Part shown: positions 8,192 to 19,245 of the stretch, piece after piece | Numbering within the stretch: position 1 is the first letter of the stretch | How the letters are laid out: every line of letters starts with the position of its first letter | Assembly (NCBI RefSeq): GCF_900187275.1 | Contig: NZ_LT906458.1 | Coordinates: forward strand, 2,220,001-2,252,000 | Source of the DNA: Pasteurella multocida | Lineage (GTDB): Bacteria > Pseudomonadota > Gammaproteobacteria > Enterobacterales > Pasteurellaceae | Length of the DNA: 32,000 nucleotides | Direction of reading: 5' to 3' | Translations under genes and position numbers: made by a program | Notes under the pieces: generated by a model | Database searches by the model: none | What the model was told of the DNA's origin: nothing | The model's input: only the letters and a program-made list of their open reading frames with translations

Positions 8192-8797
8192 TTATTTTAT
8201 GTGACGTTCTTTTAATTTATGAATCACATCTGACCAGCTTAAATCGGCATCTTGCAACAAGACTGTTAAATGATAAACGAGATCCGCAGCCTCACAAATG
8301 GTTTCTGCTTTGTCTTTCACAGTTGCGGCAAGAGCGGTTTCCACCCCTTCTTCACCGACTTTTTGTGCAATGCGTTTAGTACCTTTAGCATACAGTTGTG
8401 CGGTATAAGAACTTGCAGGATCGGCACCTTTACGACTGGCAATTAAACGTTCTAATTTGCTCAAAAAAATCCAATCCGGCGGTGTTGTCTTTTCAAACTG
8501 ATAAAAACAGCTTTCCGCCCCAGTATGACAGGTTTCACCAATCGGATTGACTAGAATCAGTAGGGTATCGTTATCACAATCTAAACTCATATCCACTACG
8601 TTTAAAAAATGTCCAGAAGTTTCACCTTTTGTCCATAAACGGTTTTTGGTACGTGAAAAAAAGGTCACTCGTTTTTCCGCCAGCGTTTTTTCTAATGCCT
8701 CTTGATTCATATAACCGAGCATTAACACTTCACAAGTCGCCACGTTTTGGATAATGACGGGCAACAAATTATCGACTTTTTGCCAGTTGATCTTCAT
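8192..8797 (-). CDS. hisI: bifunctional phosphoribosyl-AMP cyclohydrolase / phosphoribosyl-ATP pyrophosphatase
   Basis: 201 aa. Cyclohydrolase half (...[33 protein letters not shown]) plus pyrophosphohydrolase half (...EEGVETALA...EAADLVYHL). GAGG SD sequence. Confidence 0.93.
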
Positions 8798-8809
8798 AGA
8801 TACCTCAAA

Positions 8810-9187
8810 TTAATTTCGTAGTTCTAAGTTACGTTTAACTCTCATTATTTGTTGTATAAACGCATCATTCAACCTTTCTTTAGTTAATTGATTTTTAGGG
8901 GTGCTTGCCCATCGATAGATTTGTTCTATACTCCCGTAGCCTCTACCAAATATTTTGGCGAATTTAAGACAATTTTTTTTCGTTGCAGGTAAAGAAAGGA
9001 TCAGTTCTAATTGATGATCATTCCATGGCTGACCTTTATTAACTGGAGTTCTGTCCGTTTTATCTTTTTCTATCTCATACTCTGTTAGTATTTTTTTGAT
9101 AAAATGAATTTTTTCATCATAATTTAAGTTATCAATATTATTACTAAGTAATTCTATAAAACTATTTTTGAATTCAGACTTTTTCAT
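8810..9187 (-). CDS. hypothetical 125-aa protein inserted between hisF and hisI; possible Myb/SANT-like three-helix DNA-binding C-terminus
   Basis: ATG 9187 is preceded by TAAGGT. It is AT-rich: hand counts on 60-nt lines give 17-40% G+C, mostly about 30%. W55/F76/W93 spacing within PWNDHQLELILSL...FAKIFGRGYGSIEQIYRW resembles a Myb-type repeat. I recognise no family. Confidence 0.6.
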   Translation of the reverse strand: MKKSEFKNSFIELLSNNIDNLNYDEKIHFIKKILTEYEIEKDKTDRTPVNKGQPWNDHQLELILSLPATKKNCLKFAKIFGRGYGSIEQIYRWASTPKNQLTKERLNDAFIQQIMRVKRNLELRN

Positions 9188-9220
9188 GAATTTACCTTAT
9201 TAATTTAGTTTAAATATTTT

Positions 9221-9991
9221 CTATCTAATCTTAATCTTTTCCTTTCTCAAATAATCCTTTAATTCCCCAATATCAATAATCCGTTTATGGAACACGCTGG
9301 CAGCGAGCGCACCATCCACATTGGCTTCAACAAAGGCATCACGGAAATGCACCATTTCACCTGCACCGCCTGAGGCAATCAGGGGAATATGGCAGAGGTT
9401 ACGCGCGAGTTTTAATTGGGCGATGTCATAACCTTGACGAACACCGTCTTGGTTCATCATATTTAACACAATTTCGCCCGCGCCACGTTGTTGTATTTCC
9501 TTGACCCAGTCGAGTAATTGCCAATGGGTTTGGCGTGTGCGACTTTCATCGCCAGTATATTGATTAACCCAATATTTGCCGGTTTCCTTTTCAAACCAAC
9601 TATCGATCCCCACCACGATGGCTTGCACACCAAAACGATCCGCCAAGCGATTAATTAAATCAGGATCGGCAAGTGCGGGTGAATTTATAGAAATTTTATC
9701 TGCGCCAAAGGCAAATAATTTTTCCGCATCTTCCACGCTTTTAATGCCACCCGCTACGCAAAATGGAATATCAATCACTTGTGCCACACGTTCCACCCAG
9801 CTTTTATCAATAGTTCTGCCGTCAGAGGAGGCGGTAATATCATAGAACACTAATTCATCTGCGCCTTCTTCCGCATAGCGTTGCGCCAGCGGCACGATAT
9901 CGCCAATAATCTCGTGATTGCGAAATTGTACACCTTTGACTACCTGCCCATCACGTACGTCTAAGCAAGGAATTATGCGTTTTGCCAACAT
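9221..9991 (-). CDS. hisF: imidazole glycerol phosphate synthase, cyclase subunit
   Basis: 256 aa. [36 protein letters not shown] is almost identical in pattern to enterobacterial HisF. Confidence 0.97.
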
Positions 9992-10722
9992 GCGATCGCC
10001 TCCTGCACGTTAAACTTACCTTCCAATAAAGCACGCCCCACAATCACGCCAGCTACCCCAGTGTCTTTTAAGGCTTTAATATCCGCAAGAGAGCCGATCC
10101 CGCCTGATGATTGGAATTGAATCGTCGGGAATTGGGTACAGATTTCTTGATATAGCGCCACATTAGAACCTTGAAGAGTGCCATCTTTAGAAATATCGGT
10201 GCATAACACGTGTTGCAAACCGATTTCACGGAAATCGGCAATTAAGGCTTCTAACGACACGCCGCTGTTTTCTTGCCAACCGCTCACTGCGATCTGTTTT
10301 TCGCCTTGTGCGTTAATGTTGACATCTAACGCTAAGACAAATTTTTCTGCCCCGTATTTTTTAAACCATTGTTTGACCATTTCGGGTTGCTTGACTGCTG
10401 TTGAGCCAATCACCACGCGATTTGCGCCCACCGCCAGTAAATCTGCCACATCTTGCTCGGTGCGAATACCACCACCCACTTGAATTGGGCAATTCACTGC
10501 GTTGATGATTTCACCGATGAGTGTTGTTTGGCGTTTAGTTGGATCTTTCGCGCCAGTCAGATCCACTAAATGTAAGTACTTTGCCCCTTGTGACACATAA
10601 TCTTGGAATTGGGCTATCGGGTTATCGGAATAAAGGGTTTTCTGCCCATAATTACCTTGATAAAGGCGCACTACTTGACCATCAATCAGATCAAGAGCGG
10701 GGATAATTTGTGATGTTTTCAT
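9973..10722 (-). CDS. hisA: 1-(5-phosphoribosyl)-5-[(5-phosphoribosylamino)methylideneamino]imidazole-4-carboxamide isomerase
   Basis: 249 aa from ATG 10722 ([20 protein letters not shown]), with an AGGA SD upstream; the track ORF starts at TTG 10743. Overlaps the hisF start by 19 nt. Confidence 0.95.
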
Positions 10723-10759
10723 TGTGTTGTCCTGTGTTTGCAAAATTTTTAAAAAATCG

Positions 10760-10768
10760 ACCGCACTT
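10760..10768 (-). repeat. USS core at the hisH/hisA junction
   Basis: Exact ACCGCACTT; its last base is the first base of the hisH stop-codon triplet. Confidence 0.9.
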
Positions 10769-11358
10769 TATTTAATGTTTTCCACAAAATTACGCAAAAA
10801 TAACGCGCCTGCTTTGCCTGAACGCTCAGGGTGGAATTGTGCACCATAAAAATTGTTATGTTGGATTACTGCAGAAAATGGCACGCCATAGTCGCAGGTG
10901 GCGACAGTGTGTGGATTGGGCAACACGCCGTAGCTGTGCACAAAATAGAAATAGCTGTCTTGCTCAATGCCTGCAAATAACGGGTGATCGGCGACATAAT
11001 GCACCTTATTCCAGCCCATATGCGGTAATGGCAACTGACAATCCGGTAATTTTTCGGTTTTGCCTGACATCAGTTTTAATAAGTCCAAATTGCCTTCTTC
11101 GGAATAGTCGGTCATTAATTGCATTCCCAAACAAATCCCCAAAACAGGTTGAGTTAGGCTTTGGATAACCTCAATTAAGCCTAAATCCGCCAAATTTTGC
11201 ATCGCTGCTTTTGCCGTTCCCACACCAGGTAAAATCAACTTGTCGGTGGATTGGATTTGTTCGATATTATCGGTAATTTCTGCGCGATACCCTAAGCGGT
11301 CAAAAGCAAATTTGACGGAAGAAAGGTTAGCACAGCGGGTGTTGATGATGGTGATCAT
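10768..11358 (-). CDS. hisH: imidazole glycerol phosphate synthase, glutamine amidotransferase subunit
   Basis: 196 aa. Class-I GATase triad context (GICLGMQ ... FHPERS). Confidence 0.95.
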   Translation of the reverse strand: MITIINTRCANLSSVKFAFDRLGYRAEITDNIEQIQSTDKLILPGVGTAKAAMQNLADLGLIEVIQSLTQPVLGICLGMQLMTDYSEEGNLDLLKLMSGKTEKLPDCQLPLPHMGWNKVHYVADHPLFAGIEQDSYFYFVHSYGVLPNPHTVATCDYGVPFSAVIQHNNFYGAQFHPERSGKAGALFLRNFVENIK

Positions 11359-18096: not shown

Positions 18097-18100
18097 CAAG

Positions 18101-19000
18101 TTACCCCATCATTTTCTCAATTGGTAGCACTAAAATCGAACTGGCGCCAGCATCTTTCAGCTGTTCCATGGTTTCCCAGAACAGATTTTCTTGACTGACG
18201 ACATGCATAGCGACTTTCGAATTGTCGTGTGCTAATGGCAAAATAGTGGGGTTTTCCACGCCGGGTAAAAGTGCGGTGATTTCTTCCAGTTTTTCTTTTG
18301 GGGCGTGAAGCATGATGTATTTTGATTCTGCCGCTTGTTGTACACCTTGGATGCGTGTGAGTAACTTATCCACTAAGGCTTGTTTTTCTGGGCTAAGTTC
18401 AGCGGCACGTTGAATGAGGCAGGATTTTGAGCGGTAAATGATTTCCACTTCCTTTAAGCCATTAGCTTCAAGTGTTGCACCAGAAGACACTAAATCACAA
18501 ATCGCATCGGCAAGTCCGGCACGGGGCGCGACTTCCACTGATCCTGTGAGTGAACAGGTTTTAAAATCCACACCTTGTTGTTGCATATAACGTTTGAGTA
18601 AATTCGGGTAAGAGGTAGCAATACGTGCATTTTTGAGATCACTTATGCCATTGTAAGCTTCGTCTTGCGGTATGGCGATTGATAAACGGCAACCGCCAAA
18701 ATCTAAACGGCGTAATTTTTTGTAATTGACTGTTTCACCCGCAGCTTGACGAGTGAGTTCTTCCTCTTCTAAGACGTTTTCACCAATGATCCCGAGATCA
18801 ACCACACCATCAAAGACGAGACCGGGAATATCATCGTCACGCACCCGTAAAATATCAATCGGCATATTTTCAGCGTAAGCAATTAGGCGTTGTTCCTGTA
18901 AATTTATTTTTACACCGCATTGTTTCAATAAGGCTTGTGATTCTTGGCTTAAGCGTCCTGATTTTTGCATCGCAATGCGCAGTCTTTTACTTTCAATCAT
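18101..19000 (-). CDS. hisG: ATP phosphoribosyltransferase (long form)
   Basis: 299 aa. [21 protein letters not shown]... and the C-terminal regulatory domain are present. Confidence 0.95.
18269..18277 (+). repeat. USS core inside hisG
   Basis: Exact AAGTGCGGT. Confidence 0.9.
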
Positions 19001-19037
19001 AATTCTTATCCTAGTAGATGTTGTTAATTTTAGTGAT

Positions 19038-19070
19038 AAAAAAACCTCTCGAAATGGCTTCCGAGAGGTT
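19038..19070 (-). terminator. his attenuator terminator
   Basis: The minus-strand RNA AACCUCUCG-GAAGCCAUUU-CGAGAGGUU is followed by a U run that continues the stem. It lies between hisL and hisG, 38 nt upstream of the hisG ATG. Confidence 0.85.
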
Positions 19071-19145
19071 TATATTGTTCGTCATTTTATCGCACACTCG
19101 GAAGATTTGTTATCTTCCAAGCATCACAAAATACCCGAAAGATAA
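19071..19145 (-). promoter_or_regulatory. his leader alternative (anti-terminator / pause) structures
   Basis: Hairpin GGAAGAU-AACAA-AUCUUCC at 19118-19100. The CUUCCGAG segment (19104-19097) is complementary to CUCGGAAG in the 5' arm of the terminator (19065-19058). GUGAUG is complementary to the CAUCAC His codons. Confidence 0.7.
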
Positions 19146-19187
19146 TCAGGGTAGATGGTGATGATGAGTCATGCGAGTAAAAATCAT
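19146..19187 (-). CDS. hisL: his operon leader peptide (13 aa, MIFTRMTHHHHLP)
   Basis: ATG ATT TTT ACT CGC ATG ACT CAT CAT CAC CAT CTA CCC TGA, with an AAGGA SD 7 nt upstream. It has four consecutive His codons and is followed by the attenuator structures. Confidence 0.85.
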   Translation of the reverse strand: MIFTRMTHHHHLP

Positions 19188-19216
19188 AGCGTTTCCTTAT
19201 TGGTCAATTGCTATTC

Positions 19217-19245
19217 AAATTACTGTAAAAAAAATAAACTGGCAA
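19217..19245 (-). promoter_or_regulatory. candidate his operon promoter
   Basis: On the minus strand, TTGCCA (19245-19240) is followed by 17 nt and TAATTT (19222-19217). It lies about 30 nt upstream of the hisL ATG. Confidence 0.5.

Follow-up and report, generated by a model that had tools for sequence, protein, structure and literature searches.

The histidine biosynthesis (his) operon of Pasteurella multocida was examined in a stretch of 32,000 nucleotides (contig NZ_LT906458.1, positions 2,220,001 to 2,252,000), referred to below as the window, in which the his genes are encoded on the minus strand. Look-ups by exact sequence assigned every protein to P. multocida. All eight his products gave full-length Pfam matches, and the cistrons were intact, in the canonical order and on one strand. 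Four of the intercistronic junctions contained five passenger genes, every one of them co-oriented with the operon. These genes are probably lodged in the operon as passengers that ride its transcription and are exchanged via the conserved his flanks, with a likely accessory role in defence or as toxins.

Organisation of the his operon

The gene order was obtained from the list of open reading frames (ORFs) and from Pfam scans. Reading along the minus strand gave the order His_leader-hisG-[HhH85]-[Vat]-hisD-[RhuM-Doc]-hisC-hisB-[orf351]-hisH-hisA-hisF-[orf125]-hisIE, where brackets mark the insertions and RhuM-Doc is a RhuM-Fic/Doc fusion, termed RhuM-Fic below (Table 1). Each passenger has its own Shine-Dalgarno (SD) site or overlaps the stop or start codon of a his gene. 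As read from the sequence, the hisG TAA is followed by a single C and the TTGATG of HhH85, the TAA codons of Vat and RhuM-Fic stand 13 nt before the hisD and hisC ATG respectively, the orf351 TGA and the hisH ATG overlap as ATGA, and the orf125 TAA is followed by 12 nt and the hisI ATG. The last ~5 codons of hisD in the window differ from those of relatives. Several features of an attenuator-controlled his operon were found, namely a full-length match to the Rfam attenuator model, a leader peptide with four His codons, a terminator hairpin behind it, and the eight cistrons in order. A first-pass annotation of the same DNA had described this gene order with its coordinates and strand, the intact his cistrons, the quoted spacers, a promoter with a hisL attenuator, a terminator at the end of the operon and a lack of integrase or transposase. 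The order, cistrons and spacers were recovered as described, the attenuator was matched by the Rfam model, the terminator was predicted to fold into a hairpin followed by a T-run, and neither integrase nor transposase was among the operon ORFs.

Three unrelated alleles between hisB and hisH

Six P. multocida genomes carrying an identical RhuM-Fic protein were compared. These genomes share HhH85, Vat and RhuM-Fic, together with orf125 where the locus reaches that far, and contain three unrelated alleles at the hisB-hisH junction. Allele A is orf351 (the window and loci L081 and L082), allele B consists of two ORFs of 128 and 123 amino acids (aa) (L083, and L086, which has the same homology break in a contig that ends before the ORFs), and allele C is a single ORF of 220 aa corresponding to PM1201 (L084). 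The Pm70 reference carries PM1201 at this junction, unlike the window strain. Contigs with the exact proteins numbered ~670–740 for A, ~400 for C and ~250–370 for B, as rough counts that were not deduplicated.

Homology to the window breaks at 12630–12646 and resumes at 11360–11361, positions which correspond to the hisB stop and the hisH start. The coupling to the neighbouring genes is specific to the allele, with A overlapping hisH through ATGA and C overlapping the hisB stop through GTGA, and the first hisH codons also differ by allele. The flanks are ~98% identical overall between strains. Comparison of different allele classes gave ~1–2 mismatches per 200 bp far from the slot, increasing to 15–28 per 200 bp in hisC, hisB and the 5′ part of hisH and decreasing again by hisF. 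Flanking divergence rises to 5–14%. The divergence of hisC from L083 and L084 is patchy (window 14000–14600), with bins of 15–17 mismatches per 200 bp beside bins of 0–3, which suggests mosaic recombination tracts.

Each allele has a counterpart at this junction in another species. Allele A counterparts lie beside hisH in Actinobacillus pleuropneumoniae (79% identity), Mannheimia haemolytica (59%) and Exercitatus varius (45%), the two ORFs of allele B have counterparts at the same junction in Bisgaard Taxon 45 (69 and 80%), and allele C has one at the same junction in Actinobacillus genomosp. 2 (57.5%). The slot flanks of P. multocida are 92–96% identical to one another and 66–85% identical to those of other genera, and a recent import of the flanks from the genera sharing each allele was rejected on this basis. 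The item shared across species is the cassette rather than long flanking tracts. Synonymous divergence (dS) between P. multocida and A. pleuropneumoniae was 0.40 for orf351, 1.6 for hisB and 2.9 for hisH, suggesting that exchange of the orf351 cassette may be more recent than the species split. The dN/dS ratios of the inserts across species were 0.09–0.29, comparable to those of the flanking his genes, and show that the inserts are maintained under purifying selection. Judged on these alignments, the hisB-hisH junction qualifies as a variable hotspot between conserved core genes.

Occupied junctions in the Pasteurellaceae

A HisB scan of species-representative genomes yielded four Pasteurellaceae loci and 76 other proteobacterial loci, and exact-protein look-ups added seven further Pasteurellaceae loci, giving 11 in all. 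Seven junction gaps were measured per locus, and a junction was scored as occupied when the gap was at least 300 bp. Occupied junctions made up 38 of 66 in the Pasteurellaceae loci compared with 3 of 501 in the other proteobacterial loci (Fisher's exact test, 1e-37, with phylogenetic kinship ignored). Among the scored Pasteurellaceae, occupation was highest at hisB-hisH (10/10) and hisF-hisI (9/10), followed by hisH-hisA (7/11), hisG-hisD (4/6), hisD-hisC (4/8) and hisC-hisB (4/10). The hisA-hisF junction was occupied in none of 11, the gap being -19 in all 11 loci. The long ORFs in every occupied gap were co-oriented with the operon. The only large gaps outside the Pasteurellaceae were in Aeromonas eucrenophila (L067), a Glaciecola metagenome-assembled genome (MAG; L046) and Ignatzschineria (L013), and consisted of 4.9 and 1.26 kb at hisA-hisF and 494 bp at hisF-hisI.

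The contents of the junctions vary between relatives. The P. canis locus has the order hisG-HhH-hisD-hisC-hisB-[DUF5655]-hisH-hisA-hisF-[300 aa]-hisI, with nothing at hisD-hisC, and that of Bisgaard Taxon 45 has the order hisG-HhH-Vat-hisD-[GFA][His_Phos_1][RhuM-Fic]-hisC-hisB-[113+123 aa]-hisH-[MOSC]-hisA-hisF; in these close relatives the contents differ within one and the same chromosomal neighbourhood. Inserts in Actinobacillus, Mannheimia, Rodentibacter and Exercitatus include Y1_Tnp (similar to REP-associated tyrosine transposases, RAYTs, where REP denotes repetitive extragenic palindromic), DUF559, Bro-N, DUF817, DUF6904 and DUF2726 genes, as well as GNAT, ACT, MOSC and glyoxalase genes and several AT-rich ORFs without assignment. 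The Mannheimia Bro-N insert matches the PADLOC candidate PDC-S13 (2.4e-134), and a YhcG-like fragment is present in the his locus of an Actinobacillus MAG. The first-pass annotation had proposed that the inserts are foreign to histidine synthesis and were acquired independently, which agrees with junction contents that differ across related species and genera. Accretion is supported because the same five ORFs are not found at the same junctions in related genera, and the strain-level polymorphism at hisB-hisH together with the family-wide pattern extends this interpretation.

Kingella and Moraxella have compact his operons, and their HisB proteins are 71–83% identical to that of the window. 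The HisB of Kingella denitrificans (L005), a betaproteobacterium, and of Moraxella (L006–L008) is closer to the window protein than that of the Enterobacterales (~65%), which hints at horizontal transfer of the operon.

Properties of the inserted genes

The RhuM-Fic protein contains an N-terminal RhuM domain and a C-terminal Fic/Doc domain (Pfam Fic, 7.7e-14). The Doc domain retains the motif H262PFADGNKR270, which fits the Doc-type motif HxFx(D/N)(A/G)NKR, and the protein passes the TIGR01550 DOC_P1 model marginally (38.8 bits vs 38.65). These two properties are shared with Phd-Doc systems, from which RhuM-Fic differs in the fusion of the Doc domain to RhuM, in being embedded in an operon, and in having no Phd-type antitoxin gene beside it, the neighbours being hisD and hisC with no small ORF between. 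RhuM-Fic is also a full-length match to the PADLOC candidate PDC-S23 (1.2e-175, residues 1–329 on profile positions 1–330 of 331); the embedding in a defence system that goes with PDC-S23 is not found here, where the flanking genes are those of histidine synthesis. The closest homologue outside the Pasteurellaceae (65%) lies in the arrangement hsdM-hsdS-[RhuM-Fic]-hsdR, a type I restriction-modification (R-M) operon on a Methylophaga plasmid.

Searches of Pfam and NCBIfam with HhH85 gave only weak similarities of the helix-hairpin-helix type. The protein is conserved at 75–80% across the Pasteurellaceae and its gene follows hisG in P. canis and Bisgaard Taxon 45, while the Aggregatibacter actinomycetemcomitans homologue follows not hisG but fruBKA, a fructose phosphotransferase system operon (L099 10001–10237). 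HhH85 differs from the other passengers in being a conserved gene of the family. Many public records name the 84-aa protein 'recombinase RecA', which is almost certainly a naming error arising from weak RadA/HhH similarity. The Vat protein passes the NF000311 Vat_ABCDEFH equivalog narrowly (307.8 bits against a cutoff of 300), and none of the allele-specific Vat models of NCBIfam reaches its own cutoff. By this narrow pass it is a putative member of the streptogramin A O-acetyltransferase family. It is present in Taxon 45 and absent in P. canis.

The remaining two passengers, orf351 and orf125, gave no significant match in Pfam, NCBIfam, PADLOC or PHROGs. Both had been described as orphans in the first-pass annotation, a description that does not hold, as both belong to families with relatives at the same junctions. 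The orf351 family has the invariant residues C22, C32, H40, C92, H95 and D96. Distant relatives (~35% identity) carry an N-terminal SEC-C zinc motif (PF02810), which is absent from the window protein and its Pasteurellaceae homologues. The AlphaFold model of orf351 was confident, with a predicted local distance difference test (pLDDT) score of 90.5, and gave no Foldseek match in the PDB. No stable structure was predicted for the 225-nt AT-rich leader that precedes the gene, which is partly conserved with A. pleuropneumoniae. Relatives of orf351 were found in 35 viral contigs of IMG/VR (L107–L141) and in 28 plasmids of PLSDB. Among the plasmids are dairy plasmids of lactococci and one of type IncHI2, in which the gene is near an integrase. 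In ~20 of the viral contigs the gene is within ~3 kb of the contig end, the distances having been taken by hand and prophage borders being imprecise; these copies look like either prophage-border cargo or host DNA at mis-set prophage borders.

The orf125 protein corresponds to PM1205 and belongs to a family of ~124-aa all-alpha proteins with the invariant core GRGYGSIE.IYRW. Its model was also confident (pLDDT 92.6) and gave no Foldseek match in the PDB. Homologues occupy the hisF-hisI junction in contigs of relatives, and a 44% homologue in Dysosmobacter lies within a type I R-M operon of the order hsdM-hsdS-[HEPN_AbiU2][x][FRG][orf124][HAD]-hsdR. No relatives of orf125 were found in IMG/VR. 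Some of the inserts are old at their site. Four genera have an orf351 homologue next to hisH, three of them with hisB on its other side, and HhH follows hisG across Pasteurella sensu stricto.

Transcription of the inserted genes

On the operon strand, a consensus scan placed no terminator-like site in an insert or beside one, and its only hits in the operon were weak ones inside hisB and hisH. Isolation of the inserts by internal terminators was rejected, as none is near an insert and the hairpin between hisD and RhuM-Fic is without a U-tract. Because the passengers run in the direction of the operon, are equipped with SD sites or overlaps and bring no terminator, they would ride the his mRNA, with basal expression and attenuator-controlled induction.

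An alternative is that the inserts are separate transcription units with their own promoters, and that the his 'operon' consists of several shorter units outside attenuator control. In favour of this, a sigma-70-like promoter and a LexA-box-like palindrome lie just upstream of RhuM-Fic. The palindrome, AACTGTATTTTTATACAGTT, is the sole LexA-like site of at least 15/20 in the window when compared with TACTGTATATATATACAGTA, the gamma-proteobacterial LexA box, and it forms a perfect 10-bp hairpin of -12.2 kcal/mol. It is absent from Taxon 45, P. canis and Mannheimia, and in the comparison with the relatives examined only P. multocida has it. In a metagenome study, a LexA site preceding a gene that the authors termed 'death-on-curing protein (rhuM)' was validated by electrophoretic mobility shift assay (PMC3998124). 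A second CTGT-N8-ACAG match in the window (23123–23138) is intergenic between divergent permease and pyrophosphatase genes and is conserved in other P. multocida loci; it scores 11/20 against the LexA consensus and is probably due to chance.

The his cluster of Mannheimia is split, and a second his leader (MNLNYTLHHHHTLT followed by a terminator hairpin) directly precedes RhuM-Fic-GNAT-hisC-hisB (L004 ~7200–7354; L089 3815–4100; L090 ~3810–4088), which again favours shorter units. A similar indication is given by the AT-rich leader that moves with the orf351 cassette. In the RNA-seq operon map of A. pleuropneumoniae (PMC4809551), APJL_2069–2073 (hisG, hisD, hisC2, an unnamed gene and hisB) form one operon behind a leader peptide, and APJL_2074–2078 form the next, separate operon. 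Matched to the genes of locus L087, the unnamed gene would correspond to the Y1_Tnp insert and the second operon to orf351-hisH-DUF559-hisA-hisF. Given the break behind hisB, the orf351 slot may start its own transcript, and the orf351 leader may start or process a transcript.

The same map groups the inserted genes of A. pleuropneumoniae with his genes, which argues against separate units and lends indirect support to passengers on the his transcript. In the window, the spacers of HhH85, Vat and orf125 are 1–33 nt and leave no room for a promoter outside coding sequence, promoter-like hits (33 vs 27.6 ± 5.9 in shuffled sequence) show no excess, and no terminators separate the units. Separate units are on balance rather unlikely, and are compatible with passengers on the his mRNA as an added layer of control. 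The sigma-70-like promoter and the palindrome make additional inputs other than the attenuator likely at RhuM-Fic, which probably has its own putative LexA-controlled promoter, and control purely by the His attenuator is probably incomplete.

Proposed exchange of cassettes and alternative explanations

In the model that we favour, every Pasteurellaceae his junction except hisA-hisF would be a slot that is filled, emptied and refilled with different genes. Turnover would occur by homologous recombination in the conserved his genes on both sides, with the whole cassette swapped as a unit, together with the final codons of the his gene before it and the initial codons of the one after it. Homologous recombination fits because replacement is precise at the hisB stop and hisH start, flank divergence peaks around the slot, and cassettes are found across species. 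Natural transformation would be a plausible route, given the uptake signal sequences (USS) in hisG, hisD, hisC and hisB. The most active slot would be hisB-hisH, with at least three unrelated P. multocida alleles, all of which recur in other species. Relatives of several passengers are found in other settings within type I R-M operons, on plasmids or in viral (IMG/VR) contigs, and the most likely role of these passengers would be an accessory defence or toxin-type activity, an example being the Doc-type translation-blocking kinase domain fused to RhuM.

REP-like palindromes such as CCCCATACGACTCGTATGGGG lie just upstream of several his SD sites in Actinobacillus and Mannheimia (L087, for example upstream of 4823, 6569 and 11912; L001; L002; L004), and IS200-like Y1_Tnp genes of the RAYT type are found at hisC-hisB, hisH-hisA and hisG-hisD in the same two genera. 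The presence of both in these junctions suggests one source for the first entry of cassettes.

Several points weigh against this model. The Pasteurellaceae sample consists of 11 loci that are not phylogenetically independent and that omit Haemophilus influenzae, and four of the 11 were assigned to species solely via the name on one protein. Co-transcription in P. multocida is deduced from sequence logic and from a relative in whose map the operon is divided behind hisB. The extreme AT bias of orf351 (G+C at third codon positions, GC3, of 0.21) could account for part of its low dS. The raised divergence of the flanks is compatible with balancing selection over the long term and equally with imports from close relatives. 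With regard to a role in defence, PDC-S23 and PDC-S13 are candidates only, and the Vat, GNAT, His_Phos_1, ACT, MOSC, GFA and glyoxalase inserts look metabolic rather than defensive. Neither orf351 and orf125 nor alleles B and C draw a significant Pfam or PADLOC match, and the PDB search with the orf351 and orf125 models was likewise negative.

A stronger version of the model is possible but less likely than not. It holds that the his operon is a genuine embedding site for immune or toxin genes, that hisB-hisH and hisF-hisI are kept diverse by balancing or diversifying selection and exchanged across species via the his flanks, and that the cargo is wired to starvation through the attenuator and to DNA damage through the LexA box. 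If the cargo is defensive or toxic, the host of immune-type genes would be a core biosynthetic operon rather than an island, with transcription tied to charged tRNA-His. P. multocida is an important veterinary pathogen, and its Doc-type toxin domain and Vat-type acetyltransferase are possibly induced by starvation or the SOS response.

It is improbable that the inserts belong to the histidine pathway and contribute to its metabolism or control, for example as acetyltransferases that detoxify intermediates or antimetabolites, as an alternative phosphatase or as ACT regulators. Enzyme-like inserts do recur at his junctions, including Vat (window and Taxon 45), GNAT (Mannheimia), His_Phos_1 (Rodentibacter, Taxon 45 and Exercitatus), an ACT-domain protein, MOSC, glyoxalase and GFA. 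Set against this, none of these enzymes has orthologues throughout the family, Kingella, Moraxella and 70 other taxa have compact operons without them, and HisB already contains a phosphatase domain. No plausible pathway role is apparent for RhuM-Fic, orf351, orf125, Bro-N, DUF559, DUF2726 or the Y1_Tnp genes, and three unrelated alleles at one slot in one species do not fit a fixed pathway function.

An equally slim chance attaches to the inserts being neutral debris in an operon under relaxed selection in host-associated Pasteurellaceae. Some copies do decay, such as the RhuM gene of M. haemolytica (uncalled in L089 and a 157-aa fragment in L090) and the YhcG-like fragment of the Actinobacillus MAG, and his auxotrophy with loss of his genes is known from H. 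influenzae lineages (PMC3928620). Decay is not the rule, as the inserts are intact in hundreds to >1000 P. multocida contigs, their dN/dS values are those of maintained genes, and the close SD spacing is preserved, as are the ATGA and GTGA overlaps; strict co-orientation and the lack of terminators suggest a filter by operon function. Finally, the arrangement might be an ancient gene order that the whole group has kept without change. The recurrent positions of orf351 upstream of hisH, of HhH after hisG in three Pasteurella-group species and of orf125 homologues at hisF-hisI could be cited for this, but it has almost no chance of being correct, as sequence comparisons already contradict it through insert sets that differ in every species examined, three alleles segregating within P. 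multocida, the Aggregatibacter HhH gene after fruBKA and an orf351 dS far below that of its flanks.

Relation to known systems

Both the insertion of alien or ORFan genes into operons and the embedding of genes in defence systems are already known as general ideas. The former were reportedly treated by Price, Arkin and Alm in 2006. The his passengers resemble them as lineage-restricted or unrelated genes within an existing operon that are presumably co-transcribed, and differ from the scattered single cases of that literature in that nearly every his junction is a recurrent slot across a family, with allelic replacement within a species. The concept of 'alien' and 'ORFan' genes inside operons is also presented in a histidine-operon review that does not mention the Pasteurellaceae (PMC10138114). 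No description of the present pattern was found in the searchable literature (the his operon in Pasteurellaceae or P. multocida, PM locus tags and the histidine-operon review), which leaves subscription journals mostly outside, so that this absence is not proof.

The PADLOC PDC models derive from genes that lie inside type I R-M, BREX and DISARM systems, and the accessible part of that preprint describes only the Hma-embedded candidates as phage-tested (Payne et al., bioRxiv 10.1101/2024.01.29.577857). The his operon is similar to these 'guilt-by-embedding' operons (type I R-M, BREX, DISARM and Hma) in having unrelated co-oriented genes nested in a conserved multi-gene operon and variable cassettes at fixed junctions. 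The families also overlap, with RhuM-Fic matching PDC-S23, Bro-N matching PDC-S13 and the orf125 family found between hsdS and hsdR. The host here is a housekeeping biosynthesis operon with a ribosome-mediated attenuator and not an immune system, and the 'guilt' logic does not transfer. On the stronger version of the model, 'guilt-by-embedding' families would be general operon hitch-hikers, lodging without promoters in tolerant operons that are not necessarily defence ones, which gives a warning that operon embedding may be a property that some gene families bring along.

Hotspots flanked by core genes and defence islands share with the his slots the conserved flanks, unrelated AT-rich cargo that varies by strain, cargo found across species and raised flank diversity. 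Unlike them, a his slot is 0.7–1.3 kb, lies inside an operon, contains one or two genes whose coupling to the neighbouring cistrons is by stop-start overlaps, and is without an integrase, tRNA or att site. The slots would provide a small natural system for how operons tolerate and exchange internal cassettes, with flanks that are conserved and transformable. For typing of P. multocida, the difference between the hisB-hisH allele of Pm70 (PM1201) and that of the window is relevant. Integron cassettes are likewise mostly promoterless, co-oriented single-gene units expressed from an upstream promoter. In the his operon there is no intI and no attC-like site or shared repeat at the cassette borders, and essential genes of the operon stand between the cassettes. 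REP elements occur in Salmonella his operons. The Actinobacillus and Mannheimia junctions resemble REP/RAYT systems. Neither REP-like palindromes nor a gene for a Y1 transposase are present in the P. multocida window; RAYTs explain some inserts of relatives and not these five.

Table 1. Features of the his operon in the window, listed in the direction of transcription.
Feature	Position	Strand	Evidence and remarks
his promoter-like site (TTGCCA, 17 nt, TAATTT), upstream of leader	19218..19246	-	Putative; read by eye, not among consensus-scan hits
Leader peptide ORF MIFTRMTHHHHLP	19146..19187	-	Four consecutive His codons; starts before the RF00514 match and runs into its 5′ part
His_leader attenuator RNA	19035..19164	-	Rfam RF00514, 74.3 bits vs gathering score 49, full model
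Attenuator terminator hairpin	19071-19042	-	Within His_leader; also recovered by terminator consensus scan
hisG, ATP phosphoribosyltransferase	18101..19000	-	Pfam HisG + HisG_C; protein identical to HIS1_PASMU
Insert 1, HhH85, 84/85 aa	17842..18096/18099	-	Weak HhH-type matches
Insert 2, Vat-family hexapeptide acetyltransferase, 207 aa	17194..17817	-	NCBIfam NF000311
hisD, histidinol dehydrogenase	15882..17180	-	Pfam Histidinol_dh, 6.8e-163
Sigma-70-like promoter TTGCAA-16-CATAAT in final hisD codons	15881..15908	-	Consensus scan 9/12; putative function
LexA (SOS) box-like palindrome	15860..15879	-	CTGT-N8-ACAG, 16/20 to consensus
Insert 3, RhuM-Fic/Doc fusion, 332 aa	14846..15844	-	Pfam Virulence_RhuM + Fic
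hisC, histidinol-phosphate aminotransferase	13777..14832	-	Pfam Aminotran_1_2, 8.8e-68
hisB, bifunctional HAD phosphatase / imidazoleglycerol-phosphate dehydratase	12636..13727	-	Pfam IGPD + HAD-like
AT-rich 225-nt leader of orf351 cassette	12411..12635	-	In other strains, exchanged jointly with orf351
Insert 4, orf351 (allele A of the hisB-hisH slot)	11355..12410/12461	-	368 aa from upstream TTG; 27% G+C
hisH	10768..11358	-	Pfam GATase; ATG overlaps orf351 TGA
hisA	9973..10722	-	Pfam His_biosynth
hisF	9221..9991	-	Pfam His_biosynth; 19-nt overlap with hisA
Insert 5, orf125 (PM1205 family)	8810..9187	-	All-alpha; 29% G+C; Y1205_PASMU
hisIE	8192..8797	-	Pfam PRA-CH + PRA-PH
Operon terminator, inverted USS pair then T-run	8141..8184	-	Fold -16.4 kcal/mol, z -2.3; USS cores at 8150 and 8175

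Composition, uptake sequences and repeats

The G+C contents of HhH85, Vat and RhuM-Fic are 39–45%, similar to the his genes, while orf351 (27.3%) and orf125 (28.8%) are strongly AT-rich. The first-pass annotation had given ~53% for HhH85 and distinguished three composition classes. The measured value for HhH85 is 45.1%, leaving only two classes (39–45% and 27–29%), and the argument from three G+C classes was rejected. Its counts of USS cores, one each in hisG, hisD, hisC and hisB and none in the inserts, were reproduced. The absence of cores from the inserts carries little weight because only ~2 would be expected by density in 3.3 kb, a difference that is not significant, and USS depletion was rejected as a sign of foreignness.

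No target-site duplications, attC-like sites or shared border repeats other than USS were found in the window operon, and an integron or transposon origin was rejected on these grounds together with the lack of integrase and transposase genes in the operon. The extended USS motif is the sole repeat family of the region. A further USS core is present in the hisH-hisA spacer (10752–10760), and the inverted USS pair that forms the operon terminator extends over 8150–8183.

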